Shown here one piece after another: positions 11,308-53,100 of a stretch of 64,000 nt of DNA; the first letter of the stretch is position 1, and each line of letters opens with the position of its first letter. The notes under the pieces were generated by a model. That model did no database searches, was not told where the DNA came from, and saw only the letters and a list, made by a program, of their open reading frames with translations. A program made the position numbers and the translations under genes. Where the stretch lies: contig CACBQR010000001.1 of assembly GCA_902541435.1 (NCBI GenBank), positions 58,240 through 122,239 on the forward strand, written 5' to 3'. This DNA comes from an uncultured Alphaproteobacteria bacterium (lineage in GTDB: Bacteria > Pseudomonadota > Alphaproteobacteria > HIMB59 > GCA-002718135).

Positions 11308-12366
11308 TTATATTTTTTTAGCAGCAGATGTCTCTTTAATATTACTAAGCTTAGTGTATCGATCAATCATTTGAGTAGTTTTATGCCCACTTTGAGCCAT
11401 TATTTCATGAGTTGGTACACCGTTCATTCTAGCTTGAGTAATAGAACCAATTCTTAAACTGTGGCCTGAAATTTTATCACAATTATCTAAATCAGCTTCT
11501 CTTGCTCTTTTTTTAAGTATTAGGACAAAGCTTGTATCTGTAAGACTTATTTTTTGATTTTTATTATTTAGAATATATTTTTCAATATTATTAGCTCTAT
11601 TTATTTTATAGAACAGGGGGCCTTGATCTATTAAAGCTACTTCTAACCAATCTTTCAGTGCTTTTACTGGACAATAATCATTATTAGTTTTGGGAAGGTA
11701 TATCATTCTTCCTTCACCTTTTTGATCAGTCTTGGAAAAAGGTATCAATACCTGAACACCATCCTCTTCAAAATTTAAATGTTCATATTTCATACCTAAA
11801 AGCTCAGATCTTCTACAAAAACTATAAAAACCTATTAAAATAAGAGCTCTATCTCTTATGTTTCTAAAATCTTCGTTATTATTTGGAATTTTATCAATAA
11901 TTTTTTCAATATCTGCTTTTAGCAACTCTCTTGCTTGACCAGATTTATTATTTTTTTCATCTCTAACAATTGCACTAATTGTTTCAGAGATATTTGGATT
12001 TTTTCTATCAAATTGAAAACCGTTAACTCTATATTTATATGTAATAGATGCTAAGATTCTTTGTATAGTGGAAGCTTTATAGGCAGTAGAGGAGTAGGGG
12101 TTGTTATTTACATTTTCTCTACCCGGTATGTTGCTAGATCCTTTGAGTATTTTCGCCTCCGGATCTTCATGAAGCCAATCCATATAATTAGCTGTTAATG
12201 CGTAAGCACTATCTAGATCATCAACATCTAAAGGACTGCAATTGTATTTATTTTTGCAATAATCTATAAATTTTAACCAATCTCCCTGATACTTATCCTG
12301 AGTGTTTTTAGCTTTGGATTTTTCCTTTAGTTTACTTACGTTTTCATTTAGTGATATTTTAACCAT
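11308..12366 (-). CDS. Tyrosine site-specific recombinase/integrase
   Basis: Catalytic-domain motifs RDRALILIGFYSFCRRSEL (Arg) and GHSLRIGSITQARMNGVPTHEIMAQSGHKTTQMIDRYTK (H-x-x-R ... H ... Y). Confidence 0.85.
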   Translation of the reverse strand: MVKISLNENVSKLKEKSKAKNTQDKYQGDWLKFIDYCKNKYNCSPLDVDDLDSAYALTANYMDWLHEDPEAKILKGSSNIPGRENVNNNPYSSTAYKASTIQRILASITYKYRVNGFQFDRKNPNISETISAIVRDEKNNKSGQARELLKADIEKIIDKIPNNNEDFRNIRDRALILIGFYSFCRRSELLGMKYEHLNFEEDGVQVLIPFSKTDQKGEGRMIYLPKTNNDYCPVKALKDWLEVALIDQGPLFYKINRANNIEKYILNNKNQKISLTDTSFVLILKKRAREADLDNCDKISGHSLRIGSITQARMNGVPTHEIMAQSGHKTTQMIDRYTKLSNIKETSAAKKI

Positions 12367-13336: not shown

Positions 13337-13792
13337 ATGACAAGAAAACGTCCTGATTACACTGAAGCACGTAATTATTACATAAAAGGAGAGAGAAATG
13401 AGTACCCTACTCTTCAAGATATCGCTACAGAATTCAATTATTCTTTATCAACACTAAGAAAACAAGCAGCTAATGAAGGCTGGCTTTCAAAAAGAAAAGA
13501 AAGAATTGATCTGAAAGAAACAATAAAGATGAGAAAAGAATTTATGGGAAAAGCATCTAAGCTTACTAATGTTTCCTTCAACGCAATAAGTGCTGCAGAA
13601 TATATAATCAATAAAATTCAAGAAGAACAAAAGCAAATTGAATTAGGAATTAAAATTTTTGATGTACACATAGCTACAAAGCAAATTTGGGCTTTAAATA
13701 ATGCAATGAAACTTGTGGAAAGAGGCCAACAAACACTCGATGAGATTGAAAATGGACACATGTCTCCTATTGAAGACTTTTCTTTTTTATAA
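13337..13792 (+). CDS. HTH protein resembling phage terminase small subunit / YjcR (COG5484)-type
   Basis: N-terminal pattern RKRPDYTEARNYYIKG...TLQDIATEFNYSLSTLRKQAANEGWLSKRKE matches the HTH plus 'W..KR' signature of that family. This is recalled from memory, not searched. Confidence 0.45.
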   Translation: MTRKRPDYTEARNYYIKGERNEYPTLQDIATEFNYSLSTLRKQAANEGWLSKRKERIDLKETIKMRKEFMGKASKLTNVSFNAISAAEYIINKIQEEQKQIELGIKIFDVHIATKQIWALNNAMKLVERGQQTLDEIENGHMSPIEDFSFL

Positions 13793-14398
13793 TTTAAAAT
13801 TCTTATGAATAAATGATCTATCTTGAGGATATAAATAAGTTTCTTCAGTGAAAAATACATCTAATGGTCCTGATACGATATTGTAAATATACTCATCATT
13901 TTTTTTAAGAGTTTTCAAATGTTTGACACGTGACTTATCTGTATTCCAAAAATGGTGTAATATTTTTCCTCTTTCAAAATATAAAACTAAATGTTCCTTA
14001 AAATTATCATCAAAAATACCTTGATTTAAAGCATATCCATGAGGAATTCCGTTTTTAAAAGAACAATAAAAAGTATTTTTTACCTCACTGGTTCTATACT
14101 CCATCATATGCATTAAAGTTGTTCCATTTCTTACACCATTTTTATATTCTGCACTTTCATATTCTCTTAAACCTAAATTTAAAAAATATATTTTTGTATC
14201 TAAATGTCTGCTACAATTGATATTTTCTAAATCGTAATAAATTCCAGATTTATATTCAAAGTTAAATTTTTTATTACCTCTACCGTGTGGAGTTTTATTA
14301 TCTTTCTTGGTATCGCCAGTGTATGTAAAATCTAAAAACTGCTTATCTTTGTCATCAAGAATTCTCTTAATTACAATTTTTTCGTCATCTTTAAACAT
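13787..14398 (-). CDS. MORN-variant repeat protein (YwqK-like), paralog 1
   Basis: G-x-x-HG repeat motifs (TPHGRGNKKF, YKNGVRNGT, FKNGIPHGYA). Roughly 45% identical by eye to the 15679..16287 product, e.g. EHLVLYFERGKILHHFWNTDKSR vs EHLVLYFLNGEIVHHFWCNDKSR. Confidence 0.55.
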   Translation of the reverse strand: MFKDDEKIVIKRILDDKDKQFLDFTYTGDTKKDNKTPHGRGNKKFNFEYKSGIYYDLENINCSRHLDTKIYFLNLGLREYESAEYKNGVRNGTTLMHMMEYRTSEVKNTFYCSFKNGIPHGYALNQGIFDDNFKEHLVLYFERGKILHHFWNTDKSRVKHLKTLKKNDEYIYNIVSGPLDVFFTEETYLYPQDRSFIHKNFKL

Positions 14399-14417
14399 TC
14401 TTAGATACCATATTTAA

Positions 14418-15413
14418 TTATTTGGGTGATAAAAGAAGAAAATGATTGCTTGGACTTTCAGGGATAAAAGCAGGGGTCCATGGGTCATAACCATCTTTGT
14501 ATGCCATAGCTAATTCATAATCATCCATTTCCATATTAGGATATTTTTTTTTAAATTTTTCGTACTTTTCATCTTGTTCAACTCTTTTAAGTTGTTTTTC
14601 TTTATTATTTTTAAAACCCTCATCAAAAATTTCATACATTTTATATTTTCCTGGTTTCATATTTATTTCAAATGCTTCACCAAGAGTCTGAATACACAAA
14701 TTTCCCGATTTAATATTTATATTACAATTAGATTTTATTTTTTTATCTTTATAAAACTCTGTTGATTCTAGTTCTTGCTTAAATTGACAATGATTTAAAA
14801 ATTTATCTATATTAGCTTCTTGAAGCGATATCTCTGCCATACCAAACTCAAATCTGATTAAATTATCAAGAAATTTAGCTATAATATTTCTATTACCTAT
14901 CTTTTCTGCCAATAACAAAAAATTTCTATCAGAAACTTCTCTATCTTTGATTCCAATCATTTTTAATGAAAATGATTTAATCTTCATTAAGTCTAAAATA
15001 TTACAGTTTTCATTAATATTTTCTGTCCTAAACACATTCATGAAATTTAACGTTTCATTTTTTGATTTTTTATAATTTAAAATTTTATATTTTATTAATT
15101 CCTTCATACTTTCATCAATATCAATCTTTTTTCTATAAGATATTTTTGAACTAGTAGTTGAAATAATCAATTCCGTTACTTCTTTTTTATTATTATAGGA
15201 TGAAAAAAATTTAACTCCTCTTTTTATAACATTACCAAAACTACTAAATATCTGAAAGTTTCTATTAAATCTTAAAATTTTATTATCTCTCCCATTTTTG
15301 AATGTCTTTAAAAAATCAATATTATCTGTCTTTAAAGAATCATCAAAAAAATAAATGTATCCTTCATTGTTATTTCTTGGTTCAAGTTCAATACTTTTAA
15401 TTAATTGATACAT
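14418..15413 (-). CDS. Hypothetical protein (331 aa)
   Basis: Long ORF collinear with its neighbours. No family recognised. Confidence 0.6.
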   Translation of the reverse strand: MYQLIKSIELEPRNNNEGYIYFFDDSLKTDNIDFLKTFKNGRDNKILRFNRNFQIFSSFGNVIKRGVKFFSSYNNKKEVTELIISTTSSKISYRKKIDIDESMKELIKYKILNYKKSKNETLNFMNVFRTENINENCNILDLMKIKSFSLKMIGIKDREVSDRNFLLLAEKIGNRNIIAKFLDNLIRFEFGMAEISLQEANIDKFLNHCQFKQELESTEFYKDKKIKSNCNINIKSGNLCIQTLGEAFEINMKPGKYKMYEIFDEGFKNNKEKQLKRVEQDEKYEKFKKKYPNMEMDDYELAMAYKDGYDPWTPAFIPESPSNHFLLLSPK

Positions 15414-15421
15414 AAATAGTT

Positions 15422-15676
15422 TTATTCTAATATTTTTTTTATATCGTCTAATTTAGATTTAAAACTATTTCTTAAACCTTTTATAAGGTCATTATTTTCT
15501 TTTTTTGTTGATTTTAAATACTTACTTATTTTTTTATATTTTTTAAATAAATCAAATAGAGCTTTATCAAATTCATCTTCTTTTTTATTAAACTCTTCAT
15601 TAGCTATTAGAAGCTCCTCCATTTTCTCTTTAGAGGCTGGAGAGTTTCTATTAGGAAATTTTAAAATCTTACCCAT
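15422..15676 (-). CDS. Hypothetical small Lys/Glu-rich coiled-coil protein
   Basis: 84-aa ORF tightly spaced between neighbours (gaps of 8 and 2 nt), suggesting operon membership. Confidence 0.5.
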   Translation of the reverse strand: MGKILKFPNRNSPASKEKMEELLIANEEFNKKEDEFDKALFDLFKKYKKISKYLKSTKKENNDLIKGLRNSFKSKLDDIKKILE

Positions 15677-15678
15677 AT

Positions 15679-16287
15679 TTATTTAAGTTTAAATTTTTTG
15701 TAGTTTGTCCATGATCTATCGTGAGGAAAAATATTATCCTCATCAGTAAACCAAACCTCTAAATCAGTGCTAGTAATATTATAAATCCTGCTATCATGTT
15801 TTTTTAATTTTTTTAAATGTCTATCTCGTGATTTATCATTACACCAAAAATGATGCACTATTTCACCATTTAAAAAATATAAAACCAAGTGCTCTCTAAA
15901 ATTGGTATCATAAATACCTTGTTGTAATGCATACCCATTAATTACTCCATCTGCAAAAGTACAATGAAATAGTGTATTTTCTTCATGATGATCATCTGGT
16001 CTAAAAGCTAATGTTGCTTCTCCATGCCTTAAGCCATTTTTATAATTTGCAGTTTCATCAACTCTTATGCCTAGCCCATATAAGAATACTTGTGTGTTGA
16101 AATCATTAGTGCTTTTCAACATCTCCCAATCATATGTTATTTTTTCGTTATAGATGAATTTCTTTTTACCTTTACCGTGTGGTAAGCCAACTTTGTCTAT
16201 GTCGCCATCATATTTAAAACCCAATATATCTTTATTTTTTTTCTTAAGGATTTTAAAAACTGCATTTCTTTCTGGATCAACAACCAT
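15679..16287 (-). CDS. MORN-variant repeat protein (YwqK-like), paralog 2
   Basis: LPHGKGKKKF, YKNGLRHGEA and FADGVINGYA motifs. Paralogous to the 13787..14398 product. Confidence 0.55.
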   Translation of the reverse strand: MVVDPERNAVFKILKKKNKDILGFKYDGDIDKVGLPHGKGKKKFIYNEKITYDWEMLKSTNDFNTQVFLYGLGIRVDETANYKNGLRHGEATLAFRPDDHHEENTLFHCTFADGVINGYALQQGIYDTNFREHLVLYFLNGEIVHHFWCNDKSRDRHLKKLKKHDSRIYNITSTDLEVWFTDEDNIFPHDRSWTNYKKFKLK

Positions 16288-16424
16288 TATATACTTTCCT
16301 AATATAGAAATTATAAACCATCTTATTTACAATTTCAGCTTTATAAAAAGAAGATTGATTTGATATTGAAATCTTTAGCATTCTGATATTTATCCATATT
16401 ATGGTTTTCAACTAATCAAAATAC

Positions 16425-16607
16425 TCAAAGTTTTTTAAGAGCATAGTATAAAGGTCCTGCACTTAATACTAAACCTATAACAATTTTTACTACTGCGTGT
16501 CCATCAAGTCCAGTATAATAAGGGATTGTAAAAAATAGTTCCATTGCGAGATAAAGAACCCAAAATGAACCAAATAAAACAAGTAATATTTTTAATAATT
16601 TCTTCAT
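16425..16607 (-). CDS. Small two-TM membrane protein (60 aa)
   Basis: Two hydrophobic helices. It is preceded by a GAAAGGAAAAATT-ATG leader that is conserved with the repeat-peptide gene. Confidence 0.55.
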   Translation of the reverse strand: MKKLLKILLVLFGSFWVLYLAMELFFTIPYYTGLDGHAVVKIVIGLVLSAGPLYYALKKL

Positions 16608-16683
16608 AATTTTTCCTTTCGTAAAGTTTATAAATATTAAAACGTTCCTGGTTTTATTTTGTTTGAAATTAATTAAAAAAATG
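16608..16683 (-). promoter_or_regulatory. Conserved 76-nt leader/promoter element, copy 1
   Basis: About 94% identical (4 mismatches, 1 indel) to 22813..22889, whereas the downstream coding sequences are unrelated. The identity includes the SD region and a GGAAC motif. Confidence 0.6.
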
Positions 16684-16726: not shown

Positions 16727-19717
16727 TTAATTTACACCAACAATTGTATAGGGTGACCAGTAAAAAGGATGAGAATAATTGTTATCTTGTAATAGTTGAA
16801 TCTGTGACATTTTAAGTTTTTCAAAAAAGTTTTTAGCATTATTTTTAAAAAATTCTGTAGTGATCAATTCAGCCGAGTTAGTTTCCACTGCCCATTTAGT
16901 TGTGAGCATATTTTTTGATCCAGAGTAAAAAAATGATCTAGTTAAACCTGAATAATAATCACCACTTAGATCAGGAGATGCTGTATTACATGCTGATAAT
17001 ATTAATAAATTTGAATTAAATTTTTGATTTAAAATTTCTGAAGTTGTTAAATATCCATCATTAGAATTGTCTAAATTTTGAGAAAGAACAATTGCAGGCT
17101 CATTTATATTATCAACTTCATTTGCTTTTAATGCATGTGTAGCAAACATCATATATTCACTATCCATGTTCGTTGTATTTATCAGAGTTTCATTAGCTTG
17201 ATTTCCTAATAACAGAACTGTGTCATTATTTTCAAAATTTTCACTAATAAATTTAACTTCACTTTCAGTGTTAGGTAATTGAGTAAAAGTATTATCAAAA
17301 TTTGGATTCCCTACTCCAATAAATTTCTTAGCGTACTCAGTATTTTTAAGATTTTTTAATAAATAAAAAGATTCAATTGAGGGAAGATAACTGAAACCAT
17401 ATTTCTTTATAAGGAAATCTTGTTCAGAAAAATTATCTCCATTTATTTCATTATCTAATAAGCTGGCAAAAGGTATAGAAGAAATAATATCGTCAGAAAT
17501 AACAGTAATTTTATCATCAAATTGAATACTACTTTCAAAAGGCTCAATCAGAATTTTATATAAATCATAGCCAACATTAAATCGGGATATATTACTTCTA
17601 GGTTCTTCTAATAATAATCTTAAATTTTTTATTTTTAATAAAATATCATTTTTTATATTTTTTATTATTCTAAAATCCGTATTCTTTTGATCGACAAAAA
17701 GTATAATTAAATCTTCATTGTAAAAAGTATATAAAAAAATATTTTCATTTACATCAATTGCTTCTTGTATTTTCTCTAATGAATAATTGGTATTATTTAA
17801 TAAAAAATTTAATTCCTGATAATTGTCTTCTAACAGATCATTTATAGCATTTAGTTCATATGAATACTCTTCAATTTTAGACATAATATCTTTTTCTTGT
17901 TCTCTATCGATTTCATCAGCTAACTGTATTTTAGTTAAATCATTTCTTAATCCAGAAATTTGATTTCTTAATGTTTCTTTTTTTTGTAAATTATCAATGA
18001 TTTCTTCATTTTGTATATTACTTTTTACAATCATTTCTCTAATAAAATTAGAAAAATCACTACTATCTAAATATGAAATTAAATTAAATGCTGAGTTAGT
18101 ATTTACATTATTATCATTAATAATTTTTAAATAATTATAAAACCCATCCTTAAAAAATGGGTTTAAAATAACTAAATCATTTAGATTATTCTCCAATACT
18201 ACATTTAATGTTTCTTCATAAATTCTAACAGCTTCATTAATGCGATTATTAAGAAAAAAACATTTAGCTAATAAATTTTTTGATTCTAAAAGATTGATGT
18301 TATCATTTGTTAAATATTTTCTTTTAATCTCAATTGATTCCTCCATTTTTTCAATGCAAGCCTCTTTATTTTTGCTTAGAAAATATTCTTCTGAAAAGAT
18401 TTTTAAAGCTTCAGCATAGTCAATTTCTGAAGTTTTTTTTGAACCATCAAGATATTCTGAAATATATTTATCAATATCTTCATTCAAATATTGTAAGATT
18501 TTTATTTTTATTGGAACATTTCTGAAATGTAATCTTTCGAGCCCAAAAAAAGCATCATAAACATTTTTTTCTGCTAAATTAAAATATGAAATAGATTTTT
18601 GAAAGTCTCCTTTTTCAAAATAATATTTCGATATTTCAAATTGAGCAAAAGAATAATCAGCTAAAAAAACATCTTCAGGATTATTTTTATAATAATTATC
18701 TATTTTAAAAAAAACCTTATACGCTTCATTTTTTTTATTTGCATTTAAAAGTATTCTAGCTTTTTGTGAAAATAATTGCATTAAATAAGAATCTTCTCTT
18801 GCACCAGAATAATTATGAATTCTTAAAGCCTCATCTATCGACTCTATTGCTAAATTATAATTACCAGCACTCTCATATGCTTCAGCCAAAATTCCATAGT
18901 CGTAAGCTAAATTTTGTACATTCTTACCTTCTCTTATTGTTAGAAGGTTGATCACTTCATTTGCATAATCTATTGCTTTTAAATAATCATTGGCGGCATT
19001 GGCATATATCGAAGCCCAATAATAAACAAACTCATTAGGCCGAGTATTATTTATTGACTGATTATTAATATAATCAATTGTATCAATGATTTTTTCAAGA
19101 TCCTGATAATAATTTCCTGAAGAATTTAAATCAATTAATTCAAGCTGAGCATATACATTGCCGCTATCTGCTGATAATTTTAAATGTTTTTGTGCTTTAT
19201 CAAAATCATTTTCAAATACTTCTCCGTATTTATAAAAATAACCTAACTTATAATTTGCACAGCCAATATTGTTATTGCTACCAATAGTTACATATTTTTT
19301 AACTTTTTCAAAATCAACTATATCTTGATCATAATTGTCACCTATTAATCCAAAAAAATATAAATCTGCAGCATCACAAGTGGCCTCATAGTATCCCTTA
19401 TTAATAGATTTTAATAAATATTCCTCTTTGAATTTGATATCTACTTTTTCATTATAGATAACTGCTAAAATATAATATGCTTCCGCTAAATCATTTTGAT
19501 CTATTAGTTTTTTACAATCATTTTCTAAAAAATCTAAATCATAAATTGATACATCAAAACCATCATGCTGATGAGCATTTTTAATTATATTAACTGCATC
19601 CTCGCATTTGAGTTGATTAGCTCTGATATTTTTACTCGATAATAAATTAAGAGTAATTGGTACAAGTAAAATGAAAATAAATGTTTTAATAAAAAATTTT
19701 TTATATTGAACACTCAT
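16727..19717 (-). CDS. Exported Sel1/TPR-repeat protein with C-terminal CHAT (caspase-fold) protease domain
   Basis: Signal-peptide-like N-terminus (FIFILLVPITLNLLSSKNIRA-NQ) and Sel1/TPR helical repeats. The C-terminal CHAT His/Cys dyad contexts are MFATHA and LLILSACNTA. Confidence 0.8.
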   Translation of the reverse strand: MSVQYKKFFIKTFIFILLVPITLNLLSSKNIRANQLKCEDAVNIIKNAHQHDGFDVSIYDLDFLENDCKKLIDQNDLAEAYYILAVIYNEKVDIKFKEEYLLKSINKGYYEATCDAADLYFFGLIGDNYDQDIVDFEKVKKYVTIGSNNNIGCANYKLGYFYKYGEVFENDFDKAQKHLKLSADSGNVYAQLELIDLNSSGNYYQDLEKIIDTIDYINNQSINNTRPNEFVYYWASIYANAANDYLKAIDYANEVINLLTIREGKNVQNLAYDYGILAEAYESAGNYNLAIESIDEALRIHNYSGAREDSYLMQLFSQKARILLNANKKNEAYKVFFKIDNYYKNNPEDVFLADYSFAQFEISKYYFEKGDFQKSISYFNLAEKNVYDAFFGLERLHFRNVPIKIKILQYLNEDIDKYISEYLDGSKKTSEIDYAEALKIFSEEYFLSKNKEACIEKMEESIEIKRKYLTNDNINLLESKNLLAKCFFLNNRINEAVRIYEETLNVVLENNLNDLVILNPFFKDGFYNYLKIINDNNVNTNSAFNLISYLDSSDFSNFIREMIVKSNIQNEEIIDNLQKKETLRNQISGLRNDLTKIQLADEIDREQEKDIMSKIEEYSYELNAINDLLEDNYQELNFLLNNTNYSLEKIQEAIDVNENIFLYTFYNEDLIILFVDQKNTDFRIIKNIKNDILLKIKNLRLLLEEPRSNISRFNVGYDLYKILIEPFESSIQFDDKITVISDDIISSIPFASLLDNEINGDNFSEQDFLIKKYGFSYLPSIESFYLLKNLKNTEYAKKFIGVGNPNFDNTFTQLPNTESEVKFISENFENNDTVLLLGNQANETLINTTNMDSEYMMFATHALKANEVDNINEPAIVLSQNLDNSNDGYLTTSEILNQKFNSNLLILSACNTASPDLSGDYYSGLTRSFFYSGSKNMLTTKWAVETNSAELITTEFFKNNAKNFFEKLKMSQIQLLQDNNYSHPFYWSPYTIVGVN

Positions 19718-19840
19718 AATTAACGTTATTTATACAATGATTTTTTTTTTCATAACTACATTTTTCTCTATTTTTTTTGATTTTTACATAAGTTGTCATT
19801 CAATTAAATATAAAACGACTGAAAAGGTAAATTGTTTTAA

Positions 19841-21421
19841 TTAATGTGGTACAAAAATGAAATCACCTCCATCATGACCTGCTTTAAGTAAAACAGACAT
19901 TTCCGGAACTTGATCAGCATTATTGATGACGTATTTTCTAATATTAGGAAAAAGATCATCACTTAGCACAATGCTATTATTTTCTTTTAGAGTATTTATT
20001 AACGCGTTAGCAAAAACTGAATGATTATTTTCACCGGAGTCTACAGCTGGTTCATCACCGCCAGCAGATGTGATAACCACACGGGTTTTTTTTGATACTA
20101 CTTTGGTAATATCTTTAGTTAGATTTAGTTTCTGTTTACCTCTCATTAAGCTTCCAGAAAAACAGCTATCTGAAATTAAGAGGACATGTTTTGCTTTTGT
20201 AGCTTTAATATTATCAAGAATGTAGGAATTATTGATCCATTTGGATCTTTTGGTTGTGTCTGCATCTATTGGAAGCCAGTACCCTCGCTCTTCATCATTA
20301 TCAAGTTCGCCGTGTCCAGCGTAATAAATTAATAAATTATCAAAGGGTTGCATCTGACTTCTTATTTCAAAGATTGCATCTTTCATTTCATCATGTTTTT
20401 GATCAACTAAAAGAGTCACATTAAAATTATAGTTGTTTTCTAATATCTCAGCAACTTTAGTAGCATCATTAACAGCAGTATTTAGCTTTGGCAGATATTC
20501 GTAATTGTTATTACCAATTACAAGGGCATAATAATTACCAAAATTAATTTCATCTCTAAATGATTCATTCTTATTGCCTTGGACAACAACTGTTTCATTA
20601 TTTAATAAATTTTCATTATATGCGCCTAATTCTTTTAATCGTCCTATCGCATAATCACTACCAAGTTTAGCTGCTTCAGTATAAAATTTAATTGCTTCAT
20701 CTAAATCTTCATCGACACCAAGACCAAATTCGTAATGCCATGCAAGATTACCTAGGGCAAATACTTCATTAGACTCAGCTGCTTTTAATGTCCATTCTAG
20801 ACCTTTCTCGTAATCCATTTCTGTCCCTCTTCCTCCAGCATACATCCATCCAAGGTTTGCTTGTGCAATGACATTATTTAATTCTGCGCCTACTGAATAC
20901 CATTTAAAAGCTTCCTCATAATTAGACTCTGTTCCGATGCCATACATGTTATGATATGCAAATTCAGTTACAGCATAATCATAAAAATTATCATCTTCAC
21001 CTAGTTCCACAGCTATTTTAACCATTTCAAAAGATAATTTTAAATGCTCTGGTAAATTAAATATATCCTCTTCCTGTCTAACAATCTCAGATATTCTTAA
21101 ATACATATAAATAGTATTATGCAAATTATACATTGAATTAGCGTATTCAACTGAAGCAATAATATCTTGATTAGTTCCTATTCCTTTTAATAAAAATTCA
21201 GATGTATTTTCAATTCCTAAATAATCACCTTTATCTGCTAATGCTTTGTAGCACAAAAAAGCTTCAGAAAAATTTTCATCATTATAAAAAGCTACTGCTT
21301 TGTCGTTTAAGAAACCAATTGATTTATCTTCTGTACATATTTGATTAGCTATAAGTTGATTTGAAAATATTAATAAGAATAAAAAAAATAGAATTTTATA
21401 TATTTTTGCACTCACCCACAT
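19841..21421 (-). CDS. Exported Sel1-repeat protein with C-terminal caspase (peptidase C14) domain
   Basis: Signal peptide (LFFLFLLIFSNQLIA-NQ) and Sel1 repeats (AQANLGWMYAGGRGTEMDYEKGLEWTLKAA...). The C14 dyad contexts are LIYYAGHG and LLISDSCFSG. Confidence 0.85.
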   Translation of the reverse strand: MWVSAKIYKILFFLFLLIFSNQLIANQICTEDKSIGFLNDKAVAFYNDENFSEAFLCYKALADKGDYLGIENTSEFLLKGIGTNQDIIASVEYANSMYNLHNTIYMYLRISEIVRQEEDIFNLPEHLKLSFEMVKIAVELGEDDNFYDYAVTEFAYHNMYGIGTESNYEEAFKWYSVGAELNNVIAQANLGWMYAGGRGTEMDYEKGLEWTLKAAESNEVFALGNLAWHYEFGLGVDEDLDEAIKFYTEAAKLGSDYAIGRLKELGAYNENLLNNETVVVQGNKNESFRDEINFGNYYALVIGNNNYEYLPKLNTAVNDATKVAEILENNYNFNVTLLVDQKHDEMKDAIFEIRSQMQPFDNLLIYYAGHGELDNDEERGYWLPIDADTTKRSKWINNSYILDNIKATKAKHVLLISDSCFSGSLMRGKQKLNLTKDITKVVSKKTRVVITSAGGDEPAVDSGENNHSVFANALINTLKENNSIVLSDDLFPNIRKYVINNADQVPEMSVLLKAGHDGGDFIFVPH

Positions 21422-22496
21422 CTTGTTTCTTATTATCGTTTAAATCGATACATTGTTTTTCTGTAACACCATCTTCATTATTATCATAATTATATTGTAA
21501 AACCCATTTACCATTCTTTTTTATCCAGGCTATAATAAGTTCATCTTTTAAATTTTTATTTTCATCATAAAAATATTCATCATAGTAACCATCTTTATTA
21601 TAATCTACATCTTCCCTCTCAAAATAATTATCGCAATCCATATCCCATTTACGAAGTGTATAATTTTCTTTTTCTTCTATTTTTCCTTCATTCGCATACT
21701 TACAATTATTTGAATTAGTTATTTTTGGTATAACTGGTGGATTATTTAAAAATGCTACTACTTCATCTGCCGAAACAGCATAATTAAGACCAGGTGAGTC
21801 AGTTCTTTTGAATGAATTAATTCCAATAATTTTTCCATCATTTGATATTAAAGGGCCTCCAGAATTACCAGGATTTATTGGTGTTTGAGTTTGAACAATA
21901 TTAGCTGTATGTTCATACCATTTATAATTATCTCTTAATTGACTTACAAACCCTCTAGTGTACGTACAGTTTTCTCCCTGTGGATTTCCTATCGCATGCA
22001 CATCATCACCAATTAAAACATTATTCATATCAGTTTCAATCGAATAGGGTTCAACATTATAATTTTTTGATTTAATTTTATTTCTTTCAAGCTTAATCAA
22101 TGCAAGATCTTTTTTAATTATATAACTCACTACTTCAGCTCTAAAAATTGTATCACTTGCGTTTGGATCATATTTTTCACTAGTACAAAAACCTACCATA
22201 ATTAAAGGGCTAACCCCTTCATCATTTGAGATCACATGATAATTAGTTATTATTAATCCATCATTACCAATAAGAGCACCTGATCCACTGCTTGAAGGTG
22301 TTAATATTATTGCTGTTTTTGGGGCATTAGTCTTATATATATTAGATCCAATACTGCGAGTTGTAATATCACTTTCTAAATTACTTTTAATTTCAGATAA
22401 CTCGGTGTGTAATTTTAATTCTAAATAACTAGGTATTTCACCTTGGGCAAAAACACTACTGGATAAAAATATTATAAAAAGTATTAACCTAAACAT
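21396..22496 (-). CDS. Exported trypsin-like serine protease (S1 family) with Asp-rich C-terminal domain
   Basis: Signal peptide (ILFIIFLSSSVFA-QG) and catalytic triad contexts TNYHV, DLALIKL and GNSGGPL. The C-terminus has two DxNxDG calcium-loop-like motifs (DYNKDG, DNNEDG). Overlaps the caspase gene by 26 nt. Confidence 0.85.
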   Translation of the reverse strand: MFRLILFIIFLSSSVFAQGEIPSYLELKLHTELSEIKSNLESDITTRSIGSNIYKTNAPKTAIILTPSSSGSGALIGNDGLIITNYHVISNDEGVSPLIMVGFCTSEKYDPNASDTIFRAEVVSYIIKKDLALIKLERNKIKSKNYNVEPYSIETDMNNVLIGDDVHAIGNPQGENCTYTRGFVSQLRDNYKWYEHTANIVQTQTPINPGNSGGPLISNDGKIIGINSFKRTDSPGLNYAVSADEVVAFLNNPPVIPKITNSNNCKYANEGKIEEKENYTLRKWDMDCDNYFEREDVDYNKDGYYDEYFYDENKNLKDELIIAWIKKNGKWVLQYNYDNNEDGVTEKQCIDLNDNKKQDVGECKNI

Positions 22497-22534: not shown

Positions 22535-22563
22535 AAAAAGCCACTTTAAAAGTGGCTTTTTTT
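22535..22563 (-). terminator. Intrinsic (bidirectional-looking) terminator after the repeat-peptide gene
   Basis: AAAAAGCCAC-TTTAAAA-GTGGCTTTTTTT: a GC core stem flanked by A and T tracts, 19 nt downstream of the stop at 22582. Confidence 0.6.
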
Positions 22564-22581: not shown

Positions 22582-22812
22582 TTAATTAAGGTGGAAATCA
22601 TAACCTCCAAAGATGTTTGGTTGTGACCAACCATTAACGTCACCGTGGTAGTTATAACCACCAAAAATATTTGGTTGTGACCAGCCATTTACATCACCGT
22701 GGTAATTATAACCGCCAAAGATGTTTGGTTGTGACCAAGTGTAAGCATTAGCTGAAGATCCAGCAGCTAGAAGTGCCATAGTTAAAGTTATAGTTTTAAT
22801 TAAGTTTTTCAT
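22582..22812 (-). CDS. Exported tandem-repeat peptide (76 aa): signal peptide plus 3 x WSQPNIFGGY(N/D)(Y/F)H... repeats
   Basis: The likely start is the ATG at 22812, preceded by GAAAGGAAAATT; the listed ORF start at 22845 lacks an SD. Signal peptide MKNLIKTITLTMALLAAGSSANA, followed by two identical 18-aa units and one 15-aa variant. Confidence 0.7.
   Translation of the reverse strand: MKNLIKTITLTMALLAAGSSANAYTWSQPNIFGGYNYHGDVNGWSQPNIFGGYNYHGDVNGWSQPNIFGGYDFHLN
22585..22737 (-). repeat. Tandem 54-bp coding repeat (2 full units plus 1 truncated unit)
   Basis: The units encode identical peptides but differ at synonymous sites, e.g. CCA AAC ATC vs CCA AAT ATT for P-N-I. Confidence 0.85.
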
Positions 22813-22889
22813 AATTTTCCTTTCGTAAAGTTTATAAATATTCAAACGCTCCTGTTTTTATTTTGTTTGAGATTAATTAAAAAAAAATG
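22813..22889 (-). promoter_or_regulatory. Conserved 76-nt leader/promoter element, copy 2
   Basis: Near-identical to 16608..16683. It starts right after the upstream terminator T-tract. Confidence 0.6.
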
Positions 22890-22914
22890 CACGGTAAGGA
22901 GGAAAACCGTGCAT
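22879..22914 (-). terminator. Intrinsic terminator downstream of the sigma/anti-sigma operon
   Basis: On the minus strand: ATGCACGG-TTTTCCTCCTTA-CCGTGCAT followed by a T9 run. Confidence 0.65.
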
Positions 22915-22991
22915 TAACATAAGGAGTGAACCATAGCTTTGAGAACGATTAGCTATGATACTTAGTAAAACGTGTAAGGTAAAAAAATGTT

Positions 22992-23765
22992 TTAATTTTT
23001 TGGAAATAGATAAATAAAATTATAATCACTAATAATTTTGTAGTCACCAGTAATATCAATTGGTTCGCTTCCAATCTGTATTTCAATATGATGGAGATCC
23101 CATTTGTTTGAATCTGTGGAGCCACAATAAATATAATAATTATCACTGGTATTTTCTGTTTTATTAGAGATTTTTATTTGTTTTCTATCTAATTCTCGGG
23201 GACACTCTAACTCTTTATTTGAATCTGAACTTCTGGTTTGAGTTAAAGGTACTGAAACAGCAGAATAATTGTTTCTTTCTAGTTTTAATTCAACAGATTG
23301 AACTGTATTTCCTTCCATAAATAAATTTGGATATTCATCAACTAACACTTCTGAAACTTGTAAATACTGATCATTACTCATCATTTTACCCGTTTCTATG
23401 ATTTGTTGATTACCTATAAAAAATATTCCAACCGCAACAGCAAATAACACAGCTTTTGATTGAATAGGTATTACAAGAATAGGTTCAAAAATCTTTGAAA
23501 TAAAATTTTGATTTTTTTCTTTAGTATTTACAGATGTATCAATCTTACTCTGCAAGTCGTCAAATTTTTGACTAAACTTAGAAATTGAATCATCAATTTG
23601 GCTTGTATTAAAATTTTGATCAATGGAATTATCTAAATTTTTAAATTCTGATAATTTTTTTTGAGCATCTTGGTTATCATTAAGATATTGCTCAAATTCT
23701 AATCTTTCTTTTTCATTTAAAAGACCATCAATATAGTCAAAATATGTTGAGTCGCTTATTTTCAT
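22992..23765 (-). CDS. Putative membrane-spanning anti-sigma factor
   Basis: 4-nt overlap with the upstream ECF sigma gene. It has an N-terminal anti-sigma-like helix pattern (YIDGLLNEKERLEFEQYLNDNQDAQKKL), a single TM (AVLFAVAVGIFFIG) and an extracytoplasmic C-terminal domain. Confidence 0.6.
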   Translation of the reverse strand: MKISDSTYFDYIDGLLNEKERLEFEQYLNDNQDAQKKLSEFKNLDNSIDQNFNTSQIDDSISKFSQKFDDLQSKIDTSVNTKEKNQNFISKIFEPILVIPIQSKAVLFAVAVGIFFIGNQQIIETGKMMSNDQYLQVSEVLVDEYPNLFMEGNTVQSVELKLERNNYSAVSVPLTQTRSSDSNKELECPRELDRKQIKISNKTENTSDNYYIYCGSTDSNKWDLHHIEIQIGSEPIDITGDYKIISDYNFIYLFPKN

Positions 23766-24340
23766 AGTTTTATGTTATGTTTTTGACAAATATCATACAT
23801 CTTTAAACGTATAGAAGTCATTTTTGTTCTAATTGTATTAGGATTAATGTTTAATATATCCCCTATTTCTCTAAATTTCTTATTTTTTAAGTAATATAAA
23901 CTTACGATTTCAAAATCTTCCTCAGGCAATTCTTTTTGAAGAATAGCTGTGAGATTAGTATATGAGCCTTCATCTTGACTATTTTCTAATGCTTCATCTG
24001 CTCTTGGTCTATTATCTACTTCAAGAGAGAAATCATCTGTTGTTTGAGTTTTTCGTCGTATTTCTTTTCTTTGGTAATCTATAATAATATTTTTTATAGA
24101 TGTTTTAAAGTACCCCTCTAAAGTACCTTCGCTTAGAATTTTTTTTAAACTTTCAACGTCATTTTCAAATCTATTAAAAAATTTAACTAACATTTCACTA
24201 ACTATATCTTTTGCAATATCTTGAAGATTTTTTGTTTCTGATAATTGAAATTTCACTCTTTTGTACGTAAACCAAATAAGCTCATCTTTAATTTTTTCAA
24301 ATTCCTTACCTACATCTAGATGAAATTTATTAGTATTCAT
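23762..24340 (-). CDS. ECF-type sigma-70 family RNA polymerase sigma factor
   Basis: About 190 aa, with a region-2-like segment and a region-4 HTH (FREIGDILNINPNTIRTKMTSIRLKM). Confidence 0.8.
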   Translation of the reverse strand: MNTNKFHLDVGKEFEKIKDELIWFTYKRVKFQLSETKNLQDIAKDIVSEMLVKFFNRFENDVESLKKILSEGTLEGYFKTSIKNIIIDYQRKEIRRKTQTTDDFSLEVDNRPRADEALENSQDEGSYTNLTAILQKELPEEDFEIVSLYYLKNKKFREIGDILNINPNTIRTKMTSIRLKMYDICQKHNIKL

Positions 24341-24418
24341 AAATTAGGAAATAAATATCAGAAAATATTCAAACAATAAAACATTCTAAGCGTCTTATAG
24401 GCAAAGAAAGGATTTATT

Positions 24419-24694
24419 ATGTTTGTAATTTTTGGAACAACAAGTAGAAAAATTGAAGAAGAAAAAGGTTATTTTGTATGCCCTCAATGTCAGGTTTTAA
24501 GACCTTATGTTTTAGCGAGTATGCAAACTTGGTTTACATTATTTTTTATCCCCCTTTTTCCCGTAGGAGAAAAAAATAATCGACATGTAGAATGCAAAGA
24601 ATGCTCAACAACTTTTTATCCAAGAGTGCTTGATTTCAATCGATATACGGTTGATGGACAAATTCTAGGAGAAGAAAGCCAAGTTACAACATGA
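24419..24694 (+). CDS. Small zinc-ribbon protein with hydrophobic segment
   Basis: CPQC ... CKEC cysteine pairs and a WFTLFFIPLFPV hydrophobic stretch. Confidence 0.55.
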   Translation: MFVIFGTTSRKIEEEKGYFVCPQCQVLRPYVLASMQTWFTLFFIPLFPVGEKNNRHVECKECSTTFYPRVLDFNRYTVDGQILGEESQVTT

Positions 24695-51393: not shown

Positions 51394-53100
51394 TTAATAC
51401 ATGAAATAACGTTGAGCTAAAGGTAGTATTTTAGCAGGCTCACAGGTAATTAATTCTCCATCTGCCTTAACTTCATAAGTTTCTGGATTAACTTCTATAT
51501 TTGGACAATAATCATTTAATACCATATCTTTTTTAGAAATTTTTCTAATATTTTTAACTGGCAATAAAGATTTGCTAATTCCAGAATTTTTGAATGAATT
51601 TTTATCTAAAGACGCTTTACTTACAAATGTTGCAGTAGATTTTTCTAATGATTTTCCAAAAGAAGAAAACATTGGTCGCGAATACACTGGTTGTGGTGTT
51701 GGAATAGAAGCATTAGGATCACCCATTTGCGAACAAGAAATACTTCCACCTTGCAAAACCATTTCAGGTTTAACACCAAAAAAAGCAGTATCCCAAATGA
51801 CAATATCTGCGCGTTTATTCTTTTCGATACTGCCAATATGATCGGAAATACCATGAGCAATGGCAGGATTAATTGTATATTTTGCAATATAACGTTTAAC
51901 ACGTAAATTATCATTATCACCCTGCTCTTCCTTTAATTGTCCACGTTGTACTTTCATTTTATGTGCTGTTTGCCATGTTCTTATAATAACTTCACCAACA
52001 CGACCCATTGCTTGACTATCAGATGCAATAATTGAAAATGCTCCCATATCATGGAGTATATCTTCTGCGGCAATTGTTTCTTTTCGAATTCTACTTTCAG
52101 CAAATGCAACATCTTCTGGTATTGATTTATCAAGGTGATGACAAACCATTAACATGTCTAAGTGCTCTTCAACTGTATTAACAGTATAAGGTCTTGTGGG
52201 GTTTGTTGATGAAGGAATAACATATTCTTCACCACAAACTTTTATAATATCAGGCGCATGACCTCCTCCTGCTCCCTCTGTGTGAAAAGCGTGAATAGTT
52301 CTTCCATTAATCGCCTTAATCGTGCTTTCTACAAATCCACTTTCATTCAATGTATCAGTGTGAATCATAACTTGAATGTCATGTTCATCAGCTACATTTA
52401 AACAATTATCGATAGCTGCTGGAGTTGTGCCCCAATCTTCATGTAATTTAAGTGAACTTGCACCAGAAATTACTTGTTCTTCAAGAGCTTTAGGTAATGA
52501 ACTGTTTCCTTTTCCTGCAAAAGCTAAGTTCATAGAAAAAGCATCAGCTGATTGTATCATTTTCTCTATATGCCATGGTCCAGGTGTAACTGTAGTTGCC
52601 AAAGTACCGTGTGCAGGACCAGTTCCACCTCCCAACATAGTTGTAATACCAGAATGAAGTGCATCATCTATTTGTTGAGGACAAATAAAATGTATATGAC
52701 TATCAAATCCACCAGCTGTTATAATTTTGCCTTCACCAGCAATTATTTCTGTTCCAGGTCCAATAATAATATTTACATTGGGTTGAGTATCTGGATTACC
52801 TGCTTTTCCAATTTCATAAATTAATCCATCCTTAAGACCAATATCAGCTTTATAAATTCCATTTACATCAACAATTAAAGCGTTTGTTATAACTGTATCA
52901 ACAGCGCCGTCTTTGCGAGATACTTGAGATTGCCCCATTCCATCTCGAATAACTTTTCCTCCACCAAATTTTACTTCTTCACCATATGTTGTTAAATCTT
53001 TTTCCACTTCAATAAAAAGTTCAGTGTCAGCAAGTCTAACTTTATCACCAGTTGTTGGTCCATACATATCAGCATAAGCTTCTCTTTTAATTTTTTTCAT
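51394..53100 (-). CDS. ureC: Urease alpha subunit
   Basis: 568 aa with [19 protein letters not shown] and DSHIHF active-site motifs. Confidence 0.97.

Follow-up and report, generated by a model that had tools for sequence, protein, structure and literature searches.

The window (the whole stretch of DNA that was analysed, 64 kb in length, with a GC content of about 27%) carries a gene cluster in which an ECF sigma factor, three secreted proteases and several small genes lie close together (Table 1). The best NCBIfam match of the sigma factor is to the ECF superfamily only. Its 257-residue neighbour is a putative anti-sigma factor, assigned from position and topology; neither the single sequence nor a four-sequence profile gave a match in Pfam, NCBIfam or the PDB. 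The trypsin-like protein has no PDZ domain in Pfam. On the minus strand the three protease genes (16727..22496) are bracketed by two near-identical leaders of about 76 nt, one abutting the ATG of a 60-residue membrane protein and the other that of a secreted 76-residue peptide. Proteins identical or related to those of the cluster are found in Tara and other marine metagenomes, and the genome records that hold homologs of the peptide are titled Pelagibacteraceae, Alphaproteobacteria or Pirellulales.

Table 1. Positions of the leaders, their parts and the surrounding features in the window
Feature	Position	Strand	Remarks
Leader copy 1 (motif site 1)	16608..16683	−	T7/AATTAAT tract, −35, spacer, −10, 5′UTR of ~30 nt with SD
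Copy 1 −35, TTTCAAAC	16661-16665	−	positions are those of CAAAC
Copy 1 spacer	16645-16660	−	16 nt
Copy 1 −10	16640-16644	−	CGTTT
Copy 1 SD	16614-16619	−	AAAGGA
60-aa two-TM ORF	16425..16607	−	proposed to be driven by copy 1; a real gene, with 82% amino acid identity in L011
Leader copy 2 (motif site 2)	22813..22889	−	T9/AATTAAT tract, −35, spacer, −10, 5′UTR with SD
Copy 2 −35, TCTCAAAC	22865-22869	−	positions are those of CAAAC
Copy 2 spacer	22849-22864	−	16 nt
Copy 2 −10	22844-22848	−	CGTTT
Copy 2 SD	22818-22823	−	AAAGGA
Secreted 76-aa peptide	22582..22812	−	proposed to be driven by copy 2; signal peptide and 3 WSQPNIFGGYNYHGDVNG repeats
Intrinsic terminator of the peptide gene	22535..22561	−	12-bp stem and T-run
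Trypsin/HtrA-like protease	21396-22496	−	secreted
Sel1-caspase	19841-21421	−	secreted
TPR-CHAT	16727-19717	−	secreted, 996 aa
Motif site 3	22967..22993	−	TTAAAAC-N16-CGTTTTAC; overlaps the anti-sigma stop codon; proposed promoter of the candidate sRNA
Motif site 4	19812..19838	−	TTAAAAC-N16-CGTTTTA; caspase-CHAT intergenic region; weakest site
Motif site 5	24370..24396	+	TTCAAAC-N16-CGTCTTA; 22 nt before the zinc-ribbon gene (SD AAAGGA) and the Hhe helicase
Candidate sRNA, ~85 nt	22879..22962	−	hairpin 1, unpaired UUCACUCCUUAU, terminator hairpin GCACGG-UUUUCCUCCUUA-CCGUGC and U9
Candidate sRNA with promoter	22879-22993	−	equivalents at L011 852-965, L044 11321-11430, L045 1961-2076 and L013 1235-1356
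Putative anti-sigma factor, 257 aa	22992..23765	−	single-pass transmembrane; 4-nt overlap with the sigma gene
ECF sigma factor, proposed reader of the motif	23762..24340	−	TIGR02937, 65.1 bits (cutoff 42.9)
Zinc-ribbon protein	24419-24694	+	divergent from the sigma gene
Hhe-type anti-phage helicase	24755-30166	+	NF042953, 1230 bits; PADLOC Hhe/PDC-S37

The original prediction, made from the letters of the sequence, described two near-identical leaders that differ by 4 substitutions and 1 indel, and both copies were recovered on the minus strand with exactly these differences (5/70 aligned columns, from AATTAAT to the ATG). The T-run at the 5′ edge comprises seven residues in copy 1 and nine in copy 2. 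Both copies also contain the predicted Shine–Dalgarno (SD) sequence, 7–8 nt before the ATG. The two downstream coding sequences are indeed unrelated, with BLASTP between the proteins giving no alignment at E≤100, and the homology between the leaders ends at about the ATG. An apparent ungapped extension of the repeat by some 27 nt into the coding regions was rejected as compositional, since the indel places it 1 nt out of register and it reflects A/T-rich composition; the 5′ coding end of the 60-residue gene is the same in L041, a locus which has no leader. Further copies were sought in the window with leader cores of 28 nt and 27 nt, allowing up to 3 mismatches, and these occur in two places only (expectation from shuffles 0.00). 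A repeat search of the window likewise returned the leader copies as the sole pair of their kind.

Comparison with related loci separates the constrained parts of the leader from the rest. A syntenic ortholog of the cluster, L011 (protein identity 61–85%, third-codon identity 0.45–0.82), carries both leaders at the two equivalent positions. The four-way alignment of window and L011 leaders resolves into conserved blocks, namely AATTAAT-TCAAAC, 16 variable nucleotides, CGTTT, and ATAAACTTTA..AAAGGAAA..ATG. The −35 and −10 elements are invariant in this comparison and the spacer varies; the −35 (TTTCAAAC or TCTCAAAC) is the same in all four leader copies. Extending the comparison to every site of the motif in four loci (the window, L011, L044 and L045), [AC]AAAC is present at 16/16 sites, and the −10 reads CGTTT at 13 of the 16 and CGTCT at the three zinc-ribbon sites. 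Every site has a spacer of exactly 16 nt, with a sequence that varies among orthologs and strains. The resulting consensus, T-[AC]AAAC-AA-N14-CGTTT-tA, has the AAC at −35 and the CGT at −10 that are the hallmark of ECF promoters. A sigma-70 promoter was considered and rejected, a consensus scan having found no sigma-70-like hexamer pair inside either leader.

These data relocate the promoter elements. The GGAAC/GGAGC box originally suggested as an ECF −35 sits in the variable spacer; L011 has GAAAC and AACAC instead, and strains vary here as well, those with an identical peptide having GGAAC, GGAGC or TAGGAAC at this place. Strain variants differ solely in the spacer or upstream. With the −35 correctly placed, the earlier statement that no convincing −10 exists at canonical spacing no longer applies, as TCAAAC, 16 nt and CGTTT occur in all copies. 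We also note that L010 has a rearrangement or assembly junction immediately 5′ of the −35. On this metagenome contig (488-640) the junction falls exactly where the −35 begins and connects the peptide gene and its promoter to a tilS-like ORF, which is truncated and lies downstream of a ybgF/cpoB-like gene; it represents either a genuine alternative site of insertion or a chimeric assembly.

The leader elements resemble characterised ECF promoters of B. subtilis, such as those of sigW (TGAAAC-N16-CGTA) and sigV (GCAAAC...CGTC) (PMC5758882). The −35 ending in AAC, the −10 starting with CGT, the spacer of around 16 nt and a homopolymer tract by the −35 are shared with that set (PMC5758882), as is the occurrence of several copies, making up a small regulon near a sigma/anti-sigma operon. 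Unlike the B. subtilis promoters, those described here are predicted from sequence, and the window sigma factor is distant and lacks an autoregulatory copy of the motif.

The bipartite motif is not confined to the leaders. In the window [AC]AAAC-N16-CGT[TC]T occurs five times where 0.52 occurrences are expected, the maximum among 300 shuffles being three. All five sites are intergenic, lie within the cluster, face the downstream unit and fall within 8 kb of the sigma gene. The motif is similarly over-represented in L011 (three copies, 0.06 expected), L044 (four, 0.17 expected) and L045 (four, 0.07 expected), at equivalent positions before the sRNA, peptide, Sel1 and zinc-ribbon genes; the sigma factors of L044 and L045 are 67% and 69% identical to that of the window. 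In L044 the zinc-ribbon gene is not followed by a helicase, whereas the window motif precedes a zinc-ribbon gene with Hhe. The fourth site of the window is rated weakest because the caspase-CHAT intergenic region is absent from L011. This region (19717-19841, minus strand, 123 nt) has no SD, and its motif is some 95 nt away from the start of CHAT, whereas the two genes abut in L011; it may be the remnant of the leader of a lost small gene.

The leaders are most likely ECF-type promoter-plus-SD cassettes read by the adjacent ECF sigma factor, a reading we hold with good, though not complete, confidence. The bipartite motif could instead be read by another factor, either a sigma factor encoded elsewhere or a DNA-binding regulator that recognises two half-sites, and we consider this improbable. 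The sigma gene itself has no upstream motif, none being found on its strand in 24341-24418, nor before the sigma genes of L044 and L045; the usual signature of autoregulation is thus missing in the window lineage. A palindrome, AATTAATT, lies just 5′ of the −35 in both leaders, and TTAATTAA flanks the CHAT-proximal site, as might suit a different regulator. Against this stand the clustering of all five sites around the sigma gene and the behaviour of the motif in distant clusters, where the −35 half tracks the type of sigma factor (CAAAC/AAAAC, GGAAT or TGAAT) as the CGT and the 16-nt spacing stay constant.

These distant clusters were reached through the peptide. It is one member of a family of small secreted proteins built of two to four (S/T)xPNIFGGYNY repeats, comprising 61 clusters (homologs P0001–P0061, loci L013–L037), which has no Pfam or NCBIfam match and is mentioned in no paper. 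It occurs, among others, in marine SAGs of Pelagibacteraceae and Alphaproteobacteria and in Pirellulales/Planctomycetes. Where the genome is marine and AT-rich, the peptide usually lies beside an ECF sigma factor and proteases of trypsin, caspase and CHAT type, an association seen again in L013, L019, L025, L028 and L023/L036. The sigma factors of these clusters are barely related to that of the window, and the clusters carry 3–6 copies of GGAAT/TGAAT-N16-CGT, promoters that differ from those of the window in the −35 half only and are sited, among other places, upstream of the peptide homologs. L013 has five to six copies of GGAAT-N16-CGTTTAC (0.02 expected), including the promoter of the sigma gene itself and that of an Hhe-like helicase; L019, L025 and L028 have GGAAT-N16-CGTC, again including the sigma operon; and L036 has four copies of TGAAT-N16-CGT[TC]. 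In the GGAAT-type clusters, then, the motif does precede the sigma operon, unlike in the window, and this speaks against an unrelated reader. The position of an Hhe helicase hints at a defence gene in the regulon. The helicase stands behind an ECF-type site both in the window, by way of the zinc-ribbon gene, and in L013 (4469-9056, with its own GGAAT-N16-CGTTTAC site).

The earlier suggestion that the element is targeted by the adjacent ECF sigma factor is thus very probably right, though not by way of the GGAAC box that had been proposed. Likewise, of the suggestion that a shared promoter or structured 5′UTR co-regulates both genes, the promoter part is supported and the structured-RNA part fails.

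The RNA-level alternative, in which the leader would act as a structured 5′UTR, riboswitch or thermometer common to both mRNAs, had been judged equally possible at the outset; we now rate it slightly below the alternative reader and clearly unlikely. Its appeal lies in a 28-nt UTR block identical between the copies, in the conservation of ATAAACTTTA..AAAGGAAA in L011, and in a small CUUU-NNN-AAAG hairpin that the leader UTR could form. Folding energies were no better than those of shuffles, however (MFE z of −0.71, +0.21, −1.23 and −0.91 for the UTRs, and of −0.57 and +0.87 for full elements, an overall range of −1.2 to +0.9), and the leader has no Rfam match at the gathering threshold or at E≤5. 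The conserved −35 and −10 blocks, lying upstream of the likely start, would moreover stay untranscribed. The segment from the −10 to the SD is of different sequence and length (24–31 nt) in L044, L045 and L013, which are deeper relatives, and only the SD is kept there, as GAAAGGA in L044 and L045. The deep constraint is therefore on the −35, the spacing, the −10 and the SD, and not on an RNA motif. The identical 28-nt block does exceed the needs of a promoter and SD, an excess that we attribute to recent copying or gene conversion; an extra lineage-specific function, for example as a binding site for a protein or sRNA, is conceivable. The lineage-specific UTR block reads ATAAACTTTACG.

The history of the two copies is informative in this respect. 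Homologs of the 60-residue gene (80–98% identity) in L040, L041 and L043 lie 14 nt after an 86-residue ORF and have another SD and no leader, the homology of these loci to the window starting 12 nt before the ATG. It follows that the cassette was grafted onto the 60-residue gene in the lineage shared by the window and L011. Copy 2 is preceded by the terminator U-run, whose counterpart in copy 1 is the T-run at the 5′ edge, and this suggests that copying went from copy 2 to copy 1. The copies in the window lineage differ from one another at 2–5 positions; orthologous copies differ at 7 (copy 1) and 12–14 (copy 2), and the two L011 copies at 15. Such differences suggest that gene conversion or re-copying took place within the window lineage. 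We propose that the cassette of the peptide gene was copied before the 60-residue gene and then kept by purifying selection, probably with gene conversion; such copying would account for the match between the leaders beyond the −35 and −10.

The same observations could be turned to another account, in which a recent segmental duplication or gene conversion left the leader behind as a remnant with no function. The closer likeness of the window-lineage copies to each other than to their orthologs, and the T-run at the 5′ edge of copy 1, whose equivalent in copy 2 is part of the sRNA terminator, would suit it. We nevertheless regard this as very unlikely. Both copies are kept at the same two positions in L011 despite 15–40% protein divergence. 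Leader 1 differs from its L011 counterpart in only 7/71 columns (about 90% identity), against about 50% in the adjacent intergenic DNA (the first ~55 nt past the CHAT stop codon) and 45–82% at third codon positions. A second strain, P0062, also retains copy 1, where an N-terminal over-extension of the protein translates to the leader with one residue changed. The least credible of the alternatives is a dispersed repeat or miniature mobile element that has nothing to do with the genes, even though the two copies lie 6.2 kb apart in an island with an integrase (11308-12366). A pattern of 25 specified bases that matches all four known copies gave no match in 185,579 species genomes or in viral contigs; its only two matches in JGI metagenomes both fall at the peptide locus. 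The leader lacks inverted terminal repeats and always abuts a start codon.

We record here some features of the island edge. The segment 11308-16619, corresponding to L041 5635-8326 and comprising the 60-residue gene, a 151-residue gene, SIR2 and a tyrosine integrase, is conserved at 85–91% nucleotide identity, the SIR2 gene and integrase lying at 11.3–13.3 kb of the window. The cargo upstream of this edge differs, being the ECF/protease cluster here and genes for a pentameric ligand-gated-channel-like protein and PrsW in L040 and L041. In the window about 2.6 kb (13803-16418) is inserted between the 60-residue and 151-residue genes. Two paralogous MORN-like genes of about 200 codons (13787-14398 and 15679-16287, both on the minus strand, 72% nucleotide identity over 194 nt) flank ORFs of 84 and 331 residues that have no assigned function.

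Between the anti-sigma stop codon and copy 2 lies a candidate sRNA, and the 5′ T-run of that leader doubles as its U-run. Its predicted fold is far more stable than expected (MFE z of −6.0 in the window, −7.7 in L011 and −5.3 in L013). In an alignment of four lineages 97% of the cells pair, against 23–37% in slid controls, and three pairs of helix 1 have changed on both sides; these pair counts refer to the four alignable lineages, as MAFFT misaligned the most divergent, L013. The L013 analogue is not downstream of any operon, so the structure is not merely the terminator of the sigma operon. The unpaired motifs ACUCCU(U) and CCUCC(U) are conserved, and these motifs, ACUCCUU and CCUCCUUA, are similar to the anti-Shine–Dalgarno tail at the 3′ end of 16S rRNA. 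The RNA belongs to no Rfam family. Pairing of the sRNA with the leader SD was considered and rejected; duplex ranking favours other genes that have an SD (48048 and 8759), and the complementarity is not conserved in L044. We regard the sRNA as well supported as a candidate, with an apparent ECF-type promoter of its own.

Two further RNA observations were made. L025 (~11860-11906, minus strand) and L028 (~15650-15692, minus strand) each have a strong conserved hairpin with a CCUCC loop (MFE of −18 and −22 kcal/mol), which may be an analogous RNA element. Separately, an Rfam match to the Helicobacter 5′ ureB sRNA (RF02514, 93.6 bits) at 52668-52947 on the plus strand is antisense to a 568-residue ORF (51394-53100, minus strand) and probably reflects conservation of urease coding sequence rather than an sRNA.

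The preferred reading, that the leaders are ECF promoters carrying their own SD, makes each copy in all likelihood a complete expression cassette that has been duplicated, with an A/T-rich upstream tract, a promoter and a short A/U-rich 5′UTR of no stable fold that holds the ribosome-binding site. Once freed from its membrane anti-sigma factor, the ECF sigma factor would read the bipartite motif and direct RNA polymerase to start a few nucleotides downstream of CGTTT at the five promoters; in the leaders this gives the predicted transcription start. Both small genes would be switched on together with the candidate sRNA, CHAT and the zinc-ribbon/Hhe pair. Most genes of the window lack a recognisable SD, and the motif-bearing genes of the cluster have GAAAGGA. 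Because the leaders combine the best −35, the A/T tract and a strong SD in this setting, they would be expected to give the highest output, to the benefit of two small products targeted to the envelope. The protease genes beyond the peptide terminator, which lack a motif except for CHAT in the window, may rely on read-through of the terminator. We note that the other window genes with an SD (8759, 38285, 48048 and 56687) are few in all.

The closest described system is the DdvS/DdvA ECF sigma/anti-sigma pair of Myxococcus xanthus, which controls a CBASS-CRISPR defence island through four DdvS-dependent promoters (PMC11506125, PMC6061681). Both have an ECF sigma factor, a transmembrane anti-sigma factor (putative here), a periplasmic TPR-CHAT module and an ECF promoter repeated over the island (PMC11506125). 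A candidate defence gene, here the Hhe helicase, likewise stands behind one of the motif sites. The systems differ in that the TPR-CHAT of the window is a separate secreted protein of 996 residues and is not fused to the anti-sigma factor, the putative 257-residue anti-sigma factor having no CHAT domain. The window also has trypsin-like and caspase-like proteases and secreted repeat peptides, unlike the DdvS/DdvA island.

A second comparison is with the sigmaE envelope-stress regulon of E. coli, in which cleavage of the anti-sigma factor is triggered by DegS and which includes the sigmaE-dependent sRNAs MicA and RybB. There too ECF promoters drive both protein genes and sRNA, and a protease of the HtrA/DegS family is encoded in the cluster described here. 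The sRNA and the peptides of the window have no sequence relation to the E. coli components, and the anti-SD loops suggest another target logic.

Taken on its own the leader is a known kind of element in an ordinary regulon architecture, and the surrounding sigma/protease/peptide module is of more interest than the leader itself. The repeat becomes a defined ECF promoter consensus, which sets the bounds of a five-unit regulon and offers a means of annotating similar islands. This uncharacterised gene set turns up across diverse marine bacteria, each version having a multi-copy ECF promoter of its own. More speculatively, and with considerable reservation, the leader could be the strongest promoter of an undescribed conserved signalling module in streamlined marine bacteria, one whose sRNA titrates SD-led mRNAs. 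If so, the module would consist of the ECF sigma factor and its membrane anti-sigma factor, the three secreted proteases, the PNIFGGYNY peptides and the ECF-driven sRNA. In response to an envelope or phage signal, the peptides, the 60-residue membrane protein and the Hhe helicase would be induced, and the sRNA would titrate the few SD-led mRNAs in a genome that scarcely uses the SD. Tiny, regulator-poor genomes that keep a dedicated sigma circuit of this kind, along with an sRNA bearing anti-SD loops beside a defence helicase, would then offer a useful entry point into how such bacteria sense envelope and phage stress.
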